NCBI GenBank assembly: GCA_964424295.1
Contig: CAYRHZ010000002.1
Span: 1-41,293 of the forward strand
Direction: 5' to 3'
DNA: 41,293 nucleotides
Source: an uncultured Candidatus Saccharibacteria bacterium
GTDB taxonomy: Bacteria > Patescibacteriota > Minisyncoccia > Phycocordibacterales > DATDWN01
The position numbers and the translations under genes were made by a program. The notes below the pieces were generated by a model. The model saw only the letters and a program-made list of their open reading frames with translations, ran no database searches and had not been told where the DNA came from. Below are positions 2,900-41,282 of this stretch, piece after piece (the stretch's first letter is position 1; every line of letters starts with the position of its first letter).

Positions 2900-3421
2900 A
2901 TGACGACAGCTACCGAATCGGCTACCACGACCAGTACGGAACAGGCCAGCACGAAGGACTTCTGGACGCAGGTCCAGGAGGTCGACCTCTCGGCCGTCCC
3001 GACGGATGCCATCGACCTCCACGAGCCGAAGGACGACGCCGTCGTTCTCGGCGAGGCGAGTGACATCTCTCGCAGGATCTACGTGGTGATGAACCGGGAG
3101 TCTCGCAAGTTCCACGAATTCGAGATTCAGCTTCTCGAGAAGGGAAGGAAGCACCAGGAGCTTCACACGGAATCGGGTGACGACGACCACAACTGCGCCG
3201 ACTTCAAGAAGGAAATCCTGCCCCTGGTGGAGGAGGGCAGGAAGCAGGCCGCACGGTTGGACCTCATCAGGTCCCTGTTCTGGACGTCGATGAAGATCGA
3301 CTTCCCGGACCTCGAAGGCAAGGAAAACATCTTCATCGCCCAGGGGTGGAAGGTGGGCCACGAGAAGCAGAGTCCCCGTGGCCGCTTCGGCGTCCGGGTG
3401 TACGAAGTTCAACATCGGTGA
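2900..3421 (+). CDS. hypothetical protein, GC-rich orphan (173 aa; T/S-rich acidic N-terminus, charged helical core)
   Basis: AGGAGA (2888-2893) lies 6 nt before ATG 2900. Tracked ORF 2864..3421 is the same frame. Strong G/C third-position bias. No motif I recognise. Confidence 0.7.
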   Translation: MTTATESATTTSTEQASTKDFWTQVQEVDLSAVPTDAIDLHEPKDDAVVLGEASDISRRIYVVMNRESRKFHEFEIQLLEKGRKHQELHTESGDDDHNCADFKKEILPLVEEGRKQAARLDLIRSLFWTSMKIDFPDLEGKENIFIAQGWKVGHEKQSPRGRFGVRVYEVQHR

Positions 3422-4407: not shown

Positions 4408-4941
4408 ATGTCAAGAATCGGTAAAAAAATAATAAGTATCCCAGCAGGAGTAGAAGTGACTTACAATCACCCAGTCTTAACTGTAAAAGGCAAAGAAGGA
4501 ACTCTTGTTAAAAATTTTAATAAAGATATAGAGATTACAATAACTCCAACTGAGATAACTCTAGTTCCAAAAGTTTCTACTCTGGCTAGTAGAGCTCTAT
4601 GGGGAACATACTCATCTCATATACAAAACATGGTAAAGGGCGTTGCGACTCCTTTCGTTAAGAAGCTTATTCTAGAAGGTATTGGATACAAGTCAGAAGT
4701 AAAAGGAACAAATCTTGTTCTTGCATTAGGATTTTCTCACCAAGTTATCGTTCCTATTCCAGAAGGACTTAAAGTCACTGCAGAAAAGAACATTATAGCT
4801 TCAACAGGTGCAGACAAAGAATTGGTTGGAAGCTTTGCGGCAAAGGTAAGATCTCTAAAGAAACCAGAACCATACAAAGGAAAGGGTATGAGATACGAAG
4901 GAGAAGTTATTAAGCGAAAACAAGGCAAGAAAACTGCATAA
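4408..4941 (+). CDS. rplF: 50S ribosomal protein L6
   Basis: MSRIGKKIISIPAGVEV N-terminus and KPEPYKGKGMRYEGE near the C-terminus. Confidence 0.95.
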   Translation: MSRIGKKIISIPAGVEVTYNHPVLTVKGKEGTLVKNFNKDIEITITPTEITLVPKVSTLASRALWGTYSSHIQNMVKGVATPFVKKLILEGIGYKSEVKGTNLVLALGFSHQVIVPIPEGLKVTAEKNIIASTGADKELVGSFAAKVRSLKKPEPYKGKGMRYEGEVIKRKQGKKTA

Positions 4942-4957
4942 TATCTAAAGTAAAAAA

Positions 4958-5308
4958 ATGAAATCATTAAACTCAAAAATTACAAATAGAATCAGAAGAC
5001 GAAACAGAATTCGATCTAAAATTTCTGGTACTTCTACTATGCCAAGACTTTCTGTGTTCAAATCAAACACAAGTATTTCAGCACAAATCATAGATGACAA
5101 TGCTGGAGTAACACTAGCGACAGCTCACAGTAGAGATGTAAAAGGAAAGGGATTGTTGGTAAAAGCAGCGCTTGTTGGAAAACTTGTTGCAGAGAAAGCT
5201 AAAGCTAAAAACATTGATAAGGTAGTTTTTGACAGAGGAGGATTCTTTTACGCTGGAAACGTTAAGGCTTTAGCAGAGGGAGCTCGAGAAGGAGGGCTTA
5301 AATTTTAA
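4958..5308 (+). CDS. rplR: 50S ribosomal protein L18
   Basis: [25 protein letters not shown] and [27 protein letters not shown] are uL18 signatures. Confidence 0.95.
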
Positions 5309-5314
5309 AAATAT

Positions 5315-5911
5315 ATGGAACCAGAAATAACAAACAATGATGTAAAAATAGAAGAGGTTGCTGTAGAGGCTGTTCCGCAAGAAGCTTCTTCTGAACGTGC
5401 TCCAAGAGATTTTAGAAAAAATTCTAGAAAACCAGGACCAAGAAGAGAAGCTCGAGTTAAGCCTGAGTTCGACCAAAAAATAATCGATATCCGAAGAGTT
5501 ACTCGTGTAGTTACCGGAGGTAGAAGATTTAGCTTCTCAGTTGCTGTTGTTATTGGAGACAGAAAAGGAAAAGTGGGCGTTGGTATGGGTAAGGCAGGGG
5601 ACACACCAGTTGCTATCGACAAAGCAGTAAGAGACGCTAGAAAGAACATGATCAAAGTTAATCTTACAAAGCACGCTTCACCTCTACACGAAGTGTCTGC
5701 TAAATTCTCAAGTTCAAGAGTTCTTATCATGAAGGCGCCTGGAAAGGGAGTTCTTGCTGGTTCATCAGTTCGTGTTGTTCTAGAGCTTGCTGGTATTAAA
5801 GAAGTTTCAGCTAAGATCTTTTCTAGAAGTAAAAACAAAATTAACAATGCAAAAGCAGCTGTTAAAGCATTGAAAATGATGAAGTCTACAAGAGTAAGCC
5901 AGAGCGCATAA
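5315..5911 (+). CDS. rpsE: 30S ribosomal protein S5 (with about 50-aa N-terminal extension)
   Basis: RVTRVVTGGRRFSFSVAVVIGDRKGKVGVGMGKA core. Followed directly by rplO. Confidence 0.94.
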   Translation: MEPEITNNDVKIEEVAVEAVPQEASSERAPRDFRKNSRKPGPRREARVKPEFDQKIIDIRRVTRVVTGGRRFSFSVAVVIGDRKGKVGVGMGKAGDTPVAIDKAVRDARKNMIKVNLTKHASPLHEVSAKFSSSRVLIMKAPGKGVLAGSSVRVVLELAGIKEVSAKIFSRSKNKINNAKAAVKALKMMKSTRVSQSA

Positions 5912-20704: not shown

Positions 20705-20728
20705 AAAACCACCCTTTTGGGTGGTTTT
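20705..20728. terminator. bidirectional terminator hairpin
   Basis: aaaa-ccaccc-tttt-gggtgg-tttt, between the + strand ORF and the - strand tRNA-Ser. Confidence 0.7.
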
Positions 20729-20737
20729 GATTTACTG

Positions 20738-20826
20738 CGGAGACGGACGGATTCGAACCGTCGGTACCGTTTAAAGGGTACACCTCTTTAGCAAAGAGGC
20801 ACGTTAGACCACTCTGACACGTCTCC
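20738..20826 (-). tRNA. tRNA-Ser (anticodon GCU), class II
   Basis: Reverse complement is ggagacg...cgtctcc-g. Features: 7-bp acceptor, anticodon loop ttGCTaa (20790-20792), long variable arm gtacc/ggtac, T arm gacgg-ttcgaat-ccgtc, G73. I could not pair the D stem cleanly by hand. Confidence 0.8.
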
Positions 20827-20840
20827 AGTTGATATTTAGG

Positions 20841-20868
20841 TTAGCATATTTTATGTATTAGGTATAAT
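20841..20868 (+). promoter_or_regulatory. promoter-like boxes TTAGCA, 16-nt spacer, TATAAT
   Basis: TTAGCA at 20841-20846 and TATAAT at 20863-20868. Confidence 0.4.
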
Positions 20869-20887
20869 ATTCCTCTCGGAGACCTTC

Positions 20888-21336
20888 ATGCCAGACAAGA
20901 ATGGCTAACCACAAAAGAGTTCGCCGACCTTATTTCCGTCGGAGAGTGCACTGTCTATAGGTGGATTTACGACGACATCATCCCGTACTTCAACAGCCGC
21001 ATACCAAGGAGGTACGCAAACAAGATCGAGAGATTGTGGGCGAAAACCTGCACACCTTCCGAGTTCGCTAGACATCTCGGCGTCAGCCCATCGAAAGTAG
21101 ACATTCTGATGAGTAAGGGGAAACTTCGGGGCATCAGGGTGCTGAGAAAGGTCAGGCTGTATCTAAAGGACCTGAAAAAGGTCAGAGAGGATAAAGACCT
21201 GGTCCAGAAAGGAGATGTTGTTTACAAAAACAAGAGGGGCTTTGCGCGGTACTCGAAGAAGAGAAAGACCGCGATTGCTCTTTTGGGTAACCATTCCCCA
21301 AACAGAAAGAAAAGAGGTAAAAAGGCAGATTTGTGA
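20888..21336 (+). pseudogene. frameshifted tandem excisionase/MerR-type HTH protein gene (GC-rich)
   Basis: GGAGA (20878-20882) plus ATG 20888 opens only MPDKNG*, with the stop at 20906-20908. The long frame from 20902 encodes two HTH units (WLTTKEFADLISVGECTVYRWIYDDIIP... and CTPSEFARHLGVSPSKVDILMSKGKLRGIRV...) plus a basic tail. That frame has no ATG/GTG/TTG before TTG 21034. Confidence 0.6.
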
Positions 21337-21339
21337 TTA

Positions 21340-21366
21340 GGGCGCCCGTGATTTTTCCGGGCGCCC
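21340..21366 (+). terminator. GC-rich hairpin after the HTH gene
   Basis: gggcgcccg-(9 nt)-cgggcgccc is a 9-bp stem. The downstream T-tract is weak. Confidence 0.45.
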
Positions 21367-21372
21367 GTTCTA

Positions 21373-21401
21373 TTACAATTTCATTAAAAATTTTGTATAC
21401 T
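21373..21401 (+). promoter_or_regulatory. promoter-like boxes TTACAA, 17-nt spacer, TATACT, 9 nt upstream of the partial tRNA 5' copy
   Basis: TTACAA at 21373-21378 and TATACT at 21396-21401. The repeat ggataggtgggtgag begins at 21411. Confidence 0.45.
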
Positions 21402-21410
21402 TGGAAAATT

Positions 21411-21425
21411 GGATAGGTGGGTGAG
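21411..21425 (+). repeat. 15-nt exact copy of the 5' end of the tRNA at 21529
   Basis: ggataggtgggtgag occurs at 21411-21425 and at 21529-21543, separated by 103 nt of mostly GC-rich sequence. Confidence 0.9.
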
Positions 21426-21528
21426 ATGGGTGAAGGGCAGAACTGCTTCTGTCCAAACCGGCCGAAGAGCCGACCACGAACACGCCGGATCGCTTTAGCG
21501 AATCCAATTTGAACGAAGTGAATATATT

Positions 21529-21615
21529 GGATAGGTGGGTGAGTGGTTTAAACCAGCAGTTTACTAAACTGCCGTCTGGGAAACTGGACCGCGAGTTCAA
21601 ATCTCGCCCTATCCG
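21529..21615 (+). tRNA. class II tRNA, Ser-type by architecture, with unusual anticodon ACU
   Basis: Acceptor ggatagg/cctatcc with G73, D arm ggt-gagtggtttaa-acc. Anticodon arm gcagt-ttACTaa-actgc (21563-21565). Variable arm gtctgg-gaaa-ctggac, T arm gcgag-ttcaaat-ctcgc. Confidence 0.7.
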
Positions 21616-21714
21616 CAGGATTCAACAAAATATATTTTGTTGGAGATTTGAAAGACGGAGCGCGACGGTGCGAGTCCGGGTAGGGAAAGTTTTTAACAAA
21701 AAACTATTCCTGAC

Positions 21715-21734
21715 CAAATCTCGCCCTATCCGCA
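21715..21734 (+). repeat. 20-nt exact copy of the 3' end of the tRNA at 21529
   Basis: caaatctcgccctatccgca occurs at 21598-21617 and at 21715-21734, 97 nt apart. Confidence 0.9.
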
Positions 21735-21735
21735 T

Positions 21736-22404
21736 TTAGTGCGCAATAGTGAATCCGTAAACGTTTACAGCTCCCATATCGAGTAATGTTTTCCGCGCTT
21801 CATTTAGTGTGCTTCCAGTTGTAACGACATCATCAATTAGAAAAACATATTTACCAGATATTCTTTCATCTGCTTTAAAACACCCAACGAGATTTTCTGT
21901 TCTTTCTGTTTTTGACTGGCTTAAACTTTGTTTAGGGGTTTCTTTTATTTTTTCAAACCACTGTGGCGCATACAGAAGAGTTCTTTGCAAATCATTCTCT
22001 ACTATAGCTCGGGAGATTAGTTCGCTTTGGTTGTATCCACGTTCAGTTCTGCTTTTTGCGGTCAAAGGAATTGGAATGAGAACAAACTCTGCTTTTGCAT
22101 CAAAGAGCAGTACATCTGAAATAACTATCAACATTTCATCGAAAAACATTTTTCCTATAGTTCCAAGAGGTAGTATATTTTCTCTGTATTTTAGTTCCCA
22201 TATTATTGCCTTCACTCGCTTGTTTTTGTATGAAAATAGGGGATTGATCCAATCGTTGTCTTGAACCCTCTCAGCTTTAGGTAGGGCATGTATACTTTTC
22301 TCGTCCAGCCTCCGGACTATCTCATAGTCAGACCTTACGGGCAATATGAAATCTATGATAGTTTTAAAAAATTCCAGCACTATTTCTATTGTATTTTTTA
22401 ACAT
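21736..22404 (-). CDS. comFC: ComF-family phosphoribosyltransferase-domain protein
   Basis: C-terminal PRT motif YVFLIDDVVTTGSTLNEARKTLLDMGA. The N-terminus has no Cys zinc-finger. Confidence 0.85.
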   Translation of the reverse strand: MLKNTIEIVLEFFKTIIDFILPVRSDYEIVRRLDEKSIHALPKAERVQDNDWINPLFSYKNKRVKAIIWELKYRENILPLGTIGKMFFDEMLIVISDVLLFDAKAEFVLIPIPLTAKSRTERGYNQSELISRAIVENDLQRTLLYAPQWFEKIKETPKQSLSQSKTERTENLVGCFKADERISGKYVFLIDDVVTTGSTLNEARKTLLDMGAVNVYGFTIAH

Positions 22405-38518: not shown

Positions 38519-39949
38519 ATGGCAGATGAAAAAAAACCAGCTGGTGACAAGCCAGCTCCTCCAAAGCCTGATCCTTTTGTCGATATAGTTTGGACAATGG
38601 TGACCATTTTTTTAGTACTCTATGCATTTAATGCTGTGCTGGCTTTTTTTACTGGGGGAAATGGAAACTTGGCCTCAAAAGGATGGAGGAATTTTACTCC
38701 AAGAAACATTATTCTTTCTGAAACTCAGCCCATTTCATCCCTAGAGAATCCATTAGGGGCAAAGTTTGTAGTTACGAGTTATAGTGCGGATATTTTCGGT
38801 GCTCCAGGGGGAACTAAAATTGGAGAAAAGCGTTTGGGAGATAAGGGCACTATTGTAGGCGGGCCTATTACAGAAGATGGACAAAAGTATTGGAAAGTAA
38901 AATTTGAAGACGGTACTACTGGTTGGATATCGGAAAAAGATATCGGAGCTTTGCCCCAGAAAATTACTCCAATGTCAGAGGTGGAAACATTGATTGGAAC
39001 TCCAGTTGAAACTATGGGGTCTACACCAGTTTATTCAGAGCCCGGCGGAAAACAAATTGCAATTGAACCTGCTGGAAGCGGTGGAACTATATTGGAAGGT
39101 CCAATAATTAAAAATGGTGTTAAATATTGGCACGTAATATTTGACGATGGTGTGGATGGGTGGGTTAGGGAGGGGGATCTTTATAGTTTGCGAGACGGAA
39201 AAAAACCGTTGAGCACGATGGATACATTAATTGGAGGGGACGTGGTTTCTTCTAAAGATGGTGTGGAAATATTTGATACCCCTGGGGGGAGAGTTGTAGG
39301 TACTGTTGATAAGGGCCAGTCAGGAGAAATAATAGAGGGACCTTTAGTACGAAATGGAGTTAAATATTGGCATGTCAGGTTTGATAATGGGCAAGAAGGT
39401 TGGGTGTCTGAAAATGATTTAAATTATGTTGAAGAAGGGGAGCTCAGCCCACTAGCTAGGATAGTAATTTTTATTTGGAAATTATTGAAGTATCTTAAAT
39501 ATTTATTGATCTTCCTTTCTATTGTACTTGTTGGTTTTATTTATCATTTATTTAAAAGCTTGAGCAAGCTTAGGATTCAGGAAAAGAGTTTGCTGTACCC
39601 ACAGTTTTCTGAAGATAGTAAAAAAGCAGTTGTTAAAAATTCACAATGGGAAAAAGTTGTAAGCCATGTAAATTCAGAAAATCAGAATGACTGGAGACAA
39701 GGTATTATGGAGGCAGATATTATGTTGGATGACCTATTGGGAGAGCTAGGTTTAGTGGGGGATAATATGGGAGAAAAACTAAAATCTGTAAATAGGGGAG
39801 ACTTTAAAACTATAGACAATGCTTGGGAGGCACATAAAGTAAGAAACAATATCGCTCATGAAGGATTGAGTTTTGGTTTGACCCACAGAGAAGCTAAAAG
39901 AGTCATAAGTTTATACAAGTCAGTATTTGATGAGTTTAAACTAATCTAA
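38519..39949 (+). CDS. two-TM membrane protein with three SH3b-like repeats and a C-terminal HEPN-like helical domain
   Basis: TM1 VTIFLVLYAFNAVLAFFTG. Three repeats of G..G.I.EGP...NG.KYWHV.FD.G..GW. TM2 LLIFLSIVLVGFIYHLF. C-terminal IMEADIMLDDLLGELG...AWEAHKVRNNIAHEG contains an R-x4-H motif. Confidence 0.85.
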   Translation: MADEKKPAGDKPAPPKPDPFVDIVWTMVTIFLVLYAFNAVLAFFTGGNGNLASKGWRNFTPRNIILSETQPISSLENPLGAKFVVTSYSADIFGAPGGTKIGEKRLGDKGTIVGGPITEDGQKYWKVKFEDGTTGWISEKDIGALPQKITPMSEVETLIGTPVETMGSTPVYSEPGGKQIAIEPAGSGGTILEGPIIKNGVKYWHVIFDDGVDGWVREGDLYSLRDGKKPLSTMDTLIGGDVVSSKDGVEIFDTPGGRVVGTVDKGQSGEIIEGPLVRNGVKYWHVRFDNGQEGWVSENDLNYVEEGELSPLARIVIFIWKLLKYLKYLLIFLSIVLVGFIYHLFKSLSKLRIQEKSLLYPQFSEDSKKAVVKNSQWEKVVSHVNSENQNDWRQGIMEADIMLDDLLGELGLVGDNMGEKLKSVNRGDFKTIDNAWEAHKVRNNIAHEGLSFGLTHREAKRVISLYKSVFDEFKLI

Positions 39950-41004: not shown

Positions 41005-41060
41005 TTAACTAAATTGTATCAAATTGAAACCAAAAATTCATATTATTTGGCCGGAATCTC

Positions 41061-41165
41061 GAACCTTACAGGTTCAGTACCCCTTGTCGATTTTTTCATT
41101 CATTTCATTCTGAAAAAATCAGGCAAGGGCTTCGAGCCCGGACGAAATGTCTACCCAGACATTTC
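41061..41165. repeat. hairpin-rich non-coding element, copy 2
   Basis: gaacc-ttaca-ggttc (41061-41075), cattctga, and cgaaatgtct-accc-agacatttctc (41144-41165) parallel 30011-30088. Confidence 0.7.
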
Positions 41166-41180
41166 TCCGTGTCGGCAAGC

Positions 41181-41205
41181 AAAAACCACCCAAGGGTGGC
41201 TTTTG
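41181..41205 (-). terminator. terminator hairpin downstream of tRNA-Asp
   Basis: ccaccc-aa-gggtgg (41186-41199). A T-run follows it on the minus strand. Confidence 0.65.
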
Positions 41206-41208
41206 TTG

Positions 41209-41282
41209 CGCGACCGGCCGGACTCGAACCGGTAACCTCTCCCGTGACAGGGGAGTGCTCTAACCAGTTGAGCTACGATCGC
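41209..41282 (-). tRNA. tRNA-Asp (anticodon GUC)
   Basis: Reverse complement: gcgatcg-ta-gctc-aactggtta-gagc-a-ctccc-ctGTCac-gggag-aggtt-accgg-ttcgagt-ccggc... Clean cloverleaf, 74 nt, CCA not encoded. Confidence 0.9.

Follow-up and report, generated by a model that had tools for sequence, protein, structure and literature searches.

The described systems closest to the locus analysed here include integrase-mediated integration into tRNA genes, with its attL and attR sites and cis-mobilisable remnants. As at our locus, a repeat of the 3' segment from the T-loop onwards keeps the tRNA intact, tandem arrays form at one tRNA, and filled and empty sites are found among relatives. The folded hairpins of integron attC and CTX sites, compared here from sequence alone, are imperfect palindromes with arms resembling the attachment site, and they share the succession of direct copy, loop, inverted copy, backbone, and direct copy; as in integron CALINs, the arrays carry hardly any cargo or none and have no integrase beside them. 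MITE-like repeats (Correia, REP/BIME) are likewise small, non-coding, and hairpin-forming, vary in presence among strains, and sometimes contain terminators. In archaea, transposed tRNA introns of the BHB type, which Fujishima and colleagues are said to have described in 2010, reportedly lie at D-loop or T-loop positions, and they resemble our case as related short inserts in the D-loops and T-loops of different tRNA genes. Our locus lies in a window of 41,293 nucleotides (the whole stretch of DNA that was analysed), a piece of Zambryskibacteria-like (CPR) chromosome from an uncultured bacterium of the Patescibacteria, and centres on a tRNA-Ser(ACU) gene, from which 2 short modules, S1 upstream and S2 downstream, separate partial copies of its ends.

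Comparison of S1, S2, and related modules with these systems revealed that (i) unlike integrase-mediated integrations, the modules measure only about 100–230 nt, are without an integrase, duplicate the tRNA 5' end as well, and contain, within a structured and conserved interior, the target in inverted copy; (ii) unlike attC sites, they have no GTTRRRY core (GTTCGAA misfits), their boundaries lie at varying T-loop positions, no IntI or Xer was found, and their attachment site is the end of a tRNA gene; (iii) unlike those of MITE-like repeats, their inverted segments copy the local target and are not element-specific, their target duplication is long and of variable length, and they are restricted to tRNA genes; and (iv) in contrast to the archaeal introns, their host is a bacterium and the interrupted copy is a partial pseudo-copy beside an intact gene. 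The modules do not fit a derivative of a MITE or DDE transposon, since the inverted segments copy the local tRNA and the repeat length is not fixed (15 to about 40 nt). Splicing is not needed here, because the exon sequence is duplicated and the intact gene is present, and we know of no splicing endonuclease in this bacterium. A self-splicing or BHB intron was also rejected: no Rfam intron family matched even at E ≤ 10, and the intron mode of ARAGORN gave nothing credible. For the combination of a direct and an inverted target copy, at either tRNA end, with conserved cores in D-loops or T-loops, no described counterpart was found in Rfam, the phage and plasmid records, or the literature searched.

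The tRNA-Ser(ACU) gene and its surroundings

The class II tRNA-Ser(ACU) gene occupies positions 21529–21616 of the plus strand, with the anticodon at 21563–21565. ARAGORN called it as tRNA-Ser(act), and the Rfam model RF00005 scored it at 56 bits, above the curated gathering score of 29. These results bear out the good class II cloverleaf proposed in the preliminary description, which was made without database searches; neither ARAGORN nor the Rfam tRNA and tmRNA models returned a pseudogene verdict. In the ARAGORN drawing, the acceptor stem measures 7 bp, the variable stem measures 6 bp and is capped by a GAAA loop, and G73 is present; the D-loop and T-loop (TTCAAAT) are intact, and the anticodon loop reads ttACTaa. 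A tmRNA or two-piece tmRNA was rejected, as the ARAGORN tmRNA search and Rfam were negative. The anticodon loop TTTACTAAA is unchanged across more than 15 independent assemblies, and orthologues are present in the related loci L007–L009, L012, L014, L015, L018, L019, L261, L283, L294, and L297–L304, the L294 copy being identical to that of the window. In addition, tRNA-Ser(ACU) occurs in at least 120 IMG/VR contigs, mostly within phage tRNA arrays, and all 30 of the tested ones were confirmed. Because the gene is conserved in relatives and common in phage arrays, a sequencing error and a pseudogene can both be dismissed; tRNA-Ser(ACU) is a real, clade-conserved gene that is predicted to be functional.

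A conventional tRNA-Ser(GCU), which the preliminary description had placed nearby, was located by ARAGORN as tRNA-Ser(gct) at 20737–20826 on the minus strand (Rfam 46.9 bits). It is the divergent partner of the ACU gene and is identical to the L294 copy, and many relatives keep the 2 genes adjoining. Relative to L294, the tRNA pair is inverted, with breakpoints exactly at both tRNA 3' ends. Partial copies of tRNA-Ser(GCU) of at least 11 nt are absent elsewhere in the window, and none of at least 8 nt lies within ~240 nt downstream of its 3' end.

Between the 2 tRNAs lies an excisionase-type HTH_17 gene with 2 HTH stretches (20888–21336, plus strand; Pfam HTH_17, E 1.4e-12), which appears to be frameshifted after codon 6. 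Homologues of 149 aa are found at the same locus in L298–L304 and are absent from L294 and L297. The promoter proposed earlier was recovered by a consensus scan, as a consensus match only: the promoter-like element ATTACA-N18-TATACT (21372–21401, plus strand) ends 9 nt ahead of the upstream copy of the tRNA 5' end. In L302, the same element lies ahead of S1, and in L299 it lies immediately ahead of the tRNA. On the other side, a gene for a ComF-family phosphoribosyltransferase (21736–22404, minus strand; Pfam PF00156) is the conserved flank by which orthologous loci were located; a look-up of its exact protein sequence returned no record.

Decoding by tRNA-Ser(ACU)

The bacterial A34 tRNAs that are closest to this one are tRNA-Arg with ACG or ICG, the unmodified A34 tRNA-Thr of Mycoplasma, and the extra A34 tRNAs of Oenococcus, which share with it a gene-encoded A34 and a small AT-rich genome. 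By contrast, the ACU anticodon belongs to a split codon box, a GCU isoacceptor is also present, and inosine here would misread AGA, which is an Arg codon in this genome. A check of codon usage gave 135 AGT and 55 AGC codons; among the Arg codons, AGA predominates (218 uses), and it is aligned with Arg of Escherichia coli LigA at 7 positions. A reassignment of AGA to Ser, which would permit an ICU anticodon, is ruled out by the alignment of AGA with these conserved positions. In E. coli, an unmodified ACU anticodon decoded AGU only (PMC11066159). Since AGA still aligns with conserved Arg, tRNA-Ser(ACU) most probably decodes AGU through an A34 that is left unmodified. The anticodon is unusual, as the preliminary description held, but the rarity that it implied has to be qualified, with tRNA-Ser(ACU) found clade-wide and frequently in phage tRNA arrays. 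This conserved tRNA offers a naturally occurring example of A34 within a split codon box, beside tRNA-Ser(GCU) and with AGA as the main Arg codon; widespread as it is in phage arrays, it makes a good test of what keeps A34 from misreading.

Two modules between partial copies of the tRNA ends

Both ends of the ACU gene recur, on the plus strand, in identical form. The sequence ATTGGATAGGTGGGTGAG is present at 21408–21425 and 21526–21543 (spacing 118 nt, 100% identity) and comprises ATT and tRNA positions 1–15, in keeping with the earlier claim that the first 15 nt recur exactly 118 nt upstream; with the flank, the repeat extends to 18 nt. The sequence CAAATCTCGCCCTATCCGCA is present at 21598–21617 and 21715–21734 (spacing 117 nt, 100% identity); its 20 nt run from CAAAT of the T-loop through G73 to CA, and the last 20 nt of the tRNA do recur exactly downstream, as claimed. 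The other descriptive statements on the repeats and their layout were likewise borne out. Chance is excluded for the 20-mer, which never occurred twice at up to 3 mismatches in 100 shuffles; the 15-mer has 2 exact copies and one chance match with 2 mismatches. The distal 5' copy is the left boundary of S1, and such S1-type repeats match the local tRNA in L018, L283, L261, and L302. The distal 3' copy bounds S2 on the right, immediately next to the stop codon of ComF; in L299 and L294, a tRNA 3' end occupies this position beside the stop codon.

The S1 module has a size of about 100 nt plus the 18-nt repeat and lies at the D-loop position, where a copy of tRNA positions 1–15 is split off. Its interior (21426–21525, plus strand), delimited by alignment, folds, and the model R2, includes hairpin 1 (21435–21454), hairpin 2 (21459–21472), an inverted copy of tRNA positions 6–12 (21480–21486), hairpin 3 (21487–21505), and a conserved tail (21506–21525). 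Hairpin 3 ends in ATCC, which could pair with GGAT of the 5' copy. In the S1 alignment, for which only three or four independent lineages are known, 88.5% of the cells are paired and 11 pairs are changed on both sides. The S1 copies of the window and L302 are identical at 105 of 118 nt (89%), with ComF 62% identical there, and share an identical 23-nt unpaired tail. Scores of R2 range from 105 to 136 bits and were obtained only in the window, L018, L283, L261, and L302–L304; of 37 matches in a metagenome scan for S1, 2 were real (L261 and L283). No conserved ORF was found in S1, and a small ORF is ruled out by frames that differ among the window, L018, and L261 and by the compensatory stem changes. 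The strong purifying selection on S1, including its 23-nt unpaired tail, would also suit an RNA beneficial to the host.

The S2 module consists of 97 nt plus the 20-nt repeat and lies at the T-loop position, where a copy of the last 20 tRNA nt is split off. Its interior (21618–21714, plus strand), delimited by the repeats, RNAalifold, and the model R1, is of a type that we designate type B. It begins with GGAT (a partial inverted acceptor) and contains an AT palindrome (21623–21642), the inverted T-loop/T-stem copy GAGATTTGAA (21643–21652), which had been overlooked earlier, the motif AGACGGAGCG starting at 21652, the T-stem 5' strand GCGAGT (21670–21675), and a core hairpin (21678–21714). GCGAGT and CAAATCTCGC (21715–21724) fit the look of a split T-arm noted in the preliminary description, and the covariance model of this split-T-arm domain also matches intact T-arm and acceptor ends of tRNAs, with the inserted hairpin deleted. 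RNAalifold on type B yielded 20 pairs, 6 of them doubly changed. The R1 model scores 84.7 bits at S2 of the window, 42–84 bits in L004, L016, L003, L026, L018, L023, L025, and L302, and a lower 26–33 bits in L030 and L022; type B was detected down to 30–38% ComF identity. In L299, a partial 5' copy of tRNA-Ser(GCU), comprising positions 1–40, carries a type-B core (60/69 identical) in its D-loop, a different site from that in the window. A related module, type A, follows tRNA-Asp within the window.

Apart from tRNA, no Rfam family was found in the window (gathering thresholds and E ≤ 10) or in 19 relatives (gathering thresholds), and a scan of the "X" element at E ≤ 0.1 gave nothing. With introns allowed and scores relaxed, the ARAGORN calls in S1 and S2 overlapped one another and were all spurious, and neither module could be read by hand as another complete, intron-bearing tRNA. 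No recombinase or transposase is encoded among the 22 window ORFs scanned or adjoining any module, and no excised form or fresh insertion was seen. BLAST matches to phages and plasmids were limited to the tRNA part, the best annotated phage match being a GCU tRNA. The modules were judged not to be viral in origin: viral contigs gave 0 matches to the S1 pattern, and the 22 type-A and 34 type-B 16-mer matches are near a rough chance estimate, with none in a module-like context. The literature searched held nothing on bacterial tRNA-Ser(ACU), the tRNAs of Zambryskibacteria, or such modules. The modules, which recur at tRNA genes in this bacterial group, are undescribed and have no counterpart in Rfam, the phage and plasmid records, or the literature searched.

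Filled and empty sites in related loci

Alignment with relatives revealed both empty and filled loci. In L299–L301, nothing intervenes between the same promoter and the tRNA or between the tRNA and the ComF stop codon, and S1 and S2 are absent. In L294 (ComF 93% identical), the tRNA is identical, and S1, S2, and the HTH gene are all missing. L299 and L294 are exact empty sites. By contrast, in L302–L304 (ComF 62% identical), S1 and type B are placed as in the window, in the full layout. A simple tandem of degenerate tRNA genes, which the preliminary description had named among the findings that would overturn it, was not seen in this form, but the modules are partly derived from tRNA. L018 has 2 downstream modules and its close strain L283 has one; arrays of modules occur in L003, L018, and L261, and chimeric modules in L015 and L283. 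A filled/empty pattern of this kind could also be obtained by deletion between direct repeats.

All modules follow a common design. Outward from the tRNA end, a short spacer, which is often an intrinsic terminator, is followed by the inverted copy, the conserved hairpin-rich interior, and the direct copy, and this layout is mirrored between the 5' and 3' ends. Agreement of both copies, direct and inverted, with the local tRNA is seen in the window, L003, L008, L015, L018, L261, L023, and L025; the inversion of the internal copy is proven by the non-palindromic T-loops of L003 (AGTCGAA) and the window (ATTTGAA). The internal segment forms a duplex of 15–25 bp with the terminal copy in 17 of 17 modules. 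Pairing is possible between the inverted copy and the direct one, which makes every module a long hairpin with a basal stem that mimics the end of the tRNA gene. One intact tRNA is left, because each insertion duplicates the terminal segment that it interrupts. These comparisons show discrete, structured modules that are conserved yet dispensable and that occur at different tRNAs and in different loops. Their repeat lengths are 15, 17, 18, 20, 21, 23, and about 40 nt; this range of duplicated lengths is a poor fit to one fixed staggered-cut mechanism.

Origin of the modules

We consider it probable that S1 and S2 are small insertion elements, non-autonomous and directed at the ends of tRNAs, with the partial tRNA copies as their boundary repeats. 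One reading in the preliminary description, that of 2 small insertions with target duplications, gains support from the empty L299–L301 and L294 as against the filled L302–L304. It is possible, though unlikely, that the modules are instead structured RNAs serving the host, either as leader and trailer or as separate mimics of a tRNA minihelix, which would regulate how tRNA-Ser is folded, processed, or used, with an inverted copy that alternates between the tRNA end and the direct copy as a decoy. The compensatory changes and strongly conserved unpaired segments of S1 are consistent with such a role, as are the fold of the 333-nt region 21408–21740, tRNA included, at z = −5.8 and a promoter placed so that transcription would start at the 5' copy. 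In some modules, the end is an encoded GCCA and the acceptor and T-stem together make up a helix, type B is found at the same locus across distant Paceibacteria, and S1 and type B are found together at ACU tRNAs. However, close relatives with the identical tRNA or the same promoter do without the modules, a canonical intrinsic terminator precedes most downstream modules, and the same core lies inside the D-loop of a different tRNA pseudo-copy. A stem kept for pairing only need not match the neighbouring tRNA exactly, and the tandem arrays and chimeras resemble the dynamics of elements. The unusual precursor with processed extensions suggested earlier may describe the transcript here, but the extensions are not required for the tRNA, because sister genomes have the same tRNA and promoter without the modules.

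It is very unlikely that the repeats are attL and attR scars of an integrase-bearing prophage or island that integrated into the tRNA and later lost all but about 100 nt. The 3' direct repeat does bound an insert from the T-loop to the 3' end, which is reported (Williams, NAR, 2002) to be the usual identity block of T-loop-type tRNA integration; an excisionase-type HTH gene adjoins, GC content is raised across 20750–21800, and in L007, 1.3 kb of cargo lies between the tRNA and the distal 3' copy. However, a tyrosine or serine integrase is absent among the 22 scanned window ORFs and from the gene lists of the related loci, the duplication is not confined to the 3' end (S1 copies positions 1–15 with 3 upstream nt, and L299 copies GCU positions 1–40), and the HTH gene is stable at the locus whether modules are present or not. 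Random decay would not yield interiors of roughly 100–150 nt that recur across lineages with covariation, the internal inverted copies are left unexplained, and the module motifs are at chance level in viral contigs and without similarity in phage and plasmid records. The description of the repeats as att-like scars was only loosely right: there is no integrase and no sizeable element, the 5' end is duplicated, and the fillers are conserved and structured. A tandem of three tRNA-Ser copies, the outer two degenerated save for one end, would agree with the near-equal repeat spacings of 118 and 117 nt, with the partly tRNA-derived modules (type B has GCGAG...CTCGC and the acceptor 3' strand, and R1 matches real T-arms), and with the true partial 5' copy of tRNA-Ser(GCU), positions 1–40, in L299. 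We regard it as highly improbable: 15–20 nt of 100% identity beside an unalignable rest is impossible by neutral decay, the interiors are conserved across genomes with compensatory changes, neither ARAGORN nor Rfam detected a pseudo-tRNA in S1 or S2 even at relaxed settings, and the inverted copies and non-tRNA cores are unexplained.

As insertion elements, S1 would have inserted at the D-loop position and S2 at the T-loop position, the terminal segment being duplicated each time. We infer an insertion mechanism with mobility in trans and subsequent processing: the recombination activity that moves or copies the elements would be encoded elsewhere and would work on the ends and loops of tRNAs, it may be responsible for the inversion of this genome's tRNA pair as well, and the modules here are probably co-transcribed with the tRNA and then trimmed off. 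A further proposal, which we regard as doubtful, is that the modules are target-mimicking hairpin elements that fold as single strands to copy the attachment site. A host recombinase would then insert them into tRNA D-loops and T-loops in the manner of attC and CTX, the same activity would flip the tRNA-Ser pair, and the elements would be retargeted through an inverted copy that co-varies with the target. If true, this would be an integron-like cassette system with tRNA ends as attachment sites in CPR bacteria.

The CPR/Patescibacteria have small genomes and are thought to be poor in mobile DNA; strain-polymorphic modules would be an unseen source of rearrangement and a useful strain marker. 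The tRNA fragments that the modules create can mislead both tRNA annotation and island finders based on att sites. At ACU tRNAs, S1 and type-B modules are always found together and may be one composite unit instead of 2 independent insertions.

The tRNA-Ser(ACU) gene and its duplicated ends

ARAGORN called 3 tRNAs in the window, namely tRNA-Ser(act) (21529-21616, plus strand), tRNA-Ser(gct) (20737-20826, minus strand), and tRNA-Asp (41208-41282, minus strand). The ACU gene scored 56 bits against the Rfam tRNA model (gathering score 29), above the neighboring GCU gene, and its cloverleaf has a 7-bp acceptor stem, the anticodon loop ttACTaa, a 6-bp variable stem with a GAAA loop, a TTCAAAT T-loop, and G73. 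These results confirm the class II Ser-type tRNA with anticodon ACU that the preliminary description had folded by hand, as well as the conventional tRNA-Ser(GCU) that it had placed nearby. The 2 genes are likewise paired near the phosphoribosyltransferase gene ComF (21736-22404, minus strand in the window) in the related loci L007, L008, L009, L012, L014, L015, L018, L019, L294, L297, L298, L299, and L302-304, and L261 and L283 carry an ACU gene as well. Because the anticodon loop of the relatives' copies is invariably TTTACTAAA and their Rfam scores are 54-57 bits in the genome loci scanned, a base-calling error at 21563 is excluded, and tRNA-Ser(ACU) is no local oddity. A pattern search of IMG/VR for class II tRNAs with the TTTACTAAA loop matched at least 120 contigs; tRNA-Ser(act) was found in 30 of 30 contigs scanned, mostly within phage tRNA arrays together with decoders of A/U-ending codons. 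The array neighbors (contigs L081-L200) are Arg(UCU), Ile(UAU), Asn, Gln, Thr(UGU), Lys, and Glu, and one array (L098) has an additional tRNA-Gly(ACC).

Codon counts in the window are higher for AGT (135) than for AGC (55), and AGA (218) is the main arginine codon. Since the LigA AGA codons at positions 66, 206, 224, 371, 375, 400, and 432 lie opposite arginine in E. coli LigA, the genetic code is standard, and AGA would be misread by a tRNA with inosine at position 34. An orthogonal tRNA given an ACU anticodon read AGU (9.4%) in E. coli and neither AGC nor AGA, and deamination occurred in just 3 of 15 A34 anticodons (PMC11066159). tRNA-Ser(ACU) is probably a dedicated AGU reader with an unmodified A34.

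Both ends of the gene are duplicated, as had been noted by eye: each of two sequences, an 18-mer (at 21408 and at 21526) and a 20-mer (at 21598 and at 21715), is present twice without a mismatch, and neither repeat was reproduced in shuffled sequence. The promoter reported 9 nt ahead of the upstream copy was located there as a promoter-like ATTACA-N18-TATACT. The T-loop and T-stem also recur in inverted form as GAGATTTGAA (21643-21652), which had escaped the preliminary description. We designate the upstream module, in the D-loop position, S1 (distal 5' copy 21408-21425, interior 21426-21525) and the downstream module, in the T-loop position, S2 (interior 21618-21714, distal 3' copy 21715-21734).

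Empty and filled sites in relatives

In L299-301, the HTH gene, hairpin, and promoter are all as in the window, the promoter stands directly against the tRNA (...TGTATACTGGAAAAATT followed by GGATAGG), and the tRNA 3' end stands directly against the ComF stop (...CCTATCCGCA followed by TTTAATGTGC); the 3 loci are exact empty sites for both modules. L294, whose ComF is 93% identical and whose 2 tRNAs are identical to those of the window, has a 68-nt spacer between the tRNAs and lacks S1, S2, and the HTH gene. In L302-304, ComF is just 62% identical, and the full layout is nevertheless retained: GCU(-), HTH, promoter, S1, ACU(+), type-B module, and ComF(-). These comparisons settle that the partial tRNA copies are module boundaries and that the modules are dispensable. 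The number of downstream modules differs even between close strains (2 in L018 versus 1 in L283). ACU tRNAs have both S1 and a type-B module in the window, L302-304, L018, L283, and L261, and neither in L294, L297-299, L008, L012, L014, L015, L019, and L009; therefore, the 2 modules may be coupled.

Architecture of the modules

S1 opens with the 5' copy (positions 1-15) and 2 hairpins. Positions 6-12 then recur as a 7-nt inverted copy, and a third hairpin, a short complement of positions 1-4, and a conserved 20-nt tail lead up to the tRNA. Its covariance model matched only the window, L018, L283, L261, and L302-304, with 105-136 bits. In the alignment, which was fitted to the model and holds few sequences (5 rows, including the unrelated weak match L033 at 13.5 bits), 88.5% of cells are paired, 11 pairs are changed on both sides, and 6 of the 8 pairs of hairpin 1 carry such changes. 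The window and L302 share 105 of 118 nt, including all of the last 48, and differ mostly at paired positions. The inverted segment follows the local tRNA, that is to say, ATCCATC lies opposite GATGGAT in L018 and L261, ACACGCC opposite GGTGGGT in the window, and GTCTACC opposite GGTGGAT in L302. No conserved ORF was found in S1. S1 is a constrained structured element.

S2 is one member of a wider module family, designated type B, and is colinear with the modules of L004/L016, L003, and L026; in its 3' domain, a hairpin interrupts a T-stem fold (GCGAG/CTCGC). The type-B model also matched L018, L023, L025, and L302, and more weakly L030 and L022, and its matches include genomes with ComF identities down to 30-38%. 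L003, L008, and L015 have a second interior, type A, and chimeric modules are present in L015 and L283. The plan is common to all modules and is mirrored at the 5' end. Moving away from the tRNA end, a spacer, in many cases a canonical terminator, comes first; next are an inverted copy of the local tRNA end, which a small hairpin sometimes splits, then the interior, and finally a direct copy of that end. The terminal copy pairs with an internal segment in a 15-25-bp duplex in all 17 modules tested. Because the T-loops of L003 and the window are non-palindromic, the internal copy is truly inverted.

Two further arrangements were observed. In L003 (4780-5277), type A, type B, and type A modules stand in tandem behind a tRNA-Ser(GCU) of a second kind, and all three terminate in the same copy, 17-21 nt long, of the 3' end of this tRNA. 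A conserved, structured-looking element "X" of about 250 nt (...CGTACGATTCAAT...AGCCACCACGC...GATTAGTAGCT...CATTCGAACTT...ACACCGCA), without a match in Rfam or ARAGORN, stands upstream of type-B modules, where the tRNA would otherwise be, in L004 (~2905-3090, minus), L016, L010 (~4905-5130, minus), and L022 (~5640-5900, minus).

Modules at other tRNAs and inversion of the tRNA pair

Upstream of the intact GCU gene of L299 lies a partial 5' copy of tRNA-Ser(GCU) (2790-2945, minus; positions 1-17 and 20-40), in whose D-loop, between positions 17 and 20, a hairpin and a type-B core are inserted; 60 of 69 core nucleotides are identical to the window. At 41045-41207 (minus) of the window, an intrinsic terminator and then a type-A module come after tRNA-Asp(GUC). 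This module contains an inverted segment resembling a T-arm, the motif GGGGTACTGAACCTGTAAG, and a direct copy of the tRNA-Asp T-loop/T-stem, GGTTCGAGATTCCGGCC. GGGGTACTGAACCTGTAAG is identical to the motif in the L015 module behind tRNA-Ser(GCU). The modules are therefore not confined to tRNA-Ser.

The whole divergent tRNA-Ser pair is inverted between the window (20737-21734) and L294 (1394-1639). The breakpoints coincide exactly with the 3' ends of the two tRNAs (TGCGGA...TCCGCA), up to which both outer flanks are conserved. We take this inversion, the placements at other tRNAs, and the chimeric modules as indications that the modules move and recombine. The loop of the bidirectional terminator by tRNA-Ser(GCU) (20715-20718) is TTTT in the window and AAAA in L294 on identical stems, a hairpin-loop flip. 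L298 and L299, with 100% identical ComF, have the block in opposite orientations and different far flanks.

Origin of the modules

The window, with ribosomal protein genes, secY, adk, map, ligA, gatA, type IV pilus genes, and, abutting the distal 3' copy, a ComF 54-65% identical to Candidatus Zambryskibacteria homologs, is a CPR bacterial chromosome of 38% GC, rising to 44-50% over 20750-21800. The HTH_17 gene (20888-21336) resides at the locus in several genomes, with modules present or absent, and thus provides no evidence of a prophage. Its ATG with a Shine-Dalgarno sequence lies at 20888, but that frame stops at 20906; because homologs are 149 aa long and the HTH domains are in a different frame from 20902, the window copy is frameshifted or misassembled close to its start.

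The best-supported reading is that S1 and S2 are two small insertion modules, each duplicating the tRNA end that it interrupted, and that they belong to families populating tRNA genes in Paceibacteria. The modules are discrete, dispensable, and structurally constrained, and they occur at different tRNAs and loops. The preliminary interpretation is partly supported: among its explanations, two insertions with target duplication are favored. Scars of the classical integrase type fit poorly, as do tandem tRNA copies that simply decayed. Neither the 22 window ORFs that were scanned nor the genes listed for related loci included an integrase, module motifs occurred in viral contigs at chance level only, and BLAST against phage and plasmid records matched the tRNA part alone. 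The main rival is a structured RNA that serves the host, which the strong conservation of S1 keeps alive. Rfam gave no family besides tRNA in the window and the relatives' loci scanned, and ARAGORN and Rfam found neither a tmRNA nor an intron fold in the window. Under the insertion reading, the arrangement may be likened to the folded-hairpin recombination of attC and CTX: a folded hairpin recombining with a duplex site would leave, between two direct copies, first a spacer, then an inverted copy, and then the interior. The modules look like a variant of a known phenomenon, the insertion at tRNA genes that duplicates its target, and there is a real chance that they are more novel than that.

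In L007, the two tRNA-Ser genes are separated by a 357-aa ORF (4727-5800), which has an equivalent in L009. By eye, this ORF shows LAGLIDADG-like motifs (LLGDGN..., DTDGCF), which suggest that an insertion of the homing-endonuclease type took place at this same hotspot. At 39154-39168, GGATGGGTGGGTTAG within the ORF 38519-39949 resembles the tRNA 5' end with 2 mismatches, which is consistent with chance.
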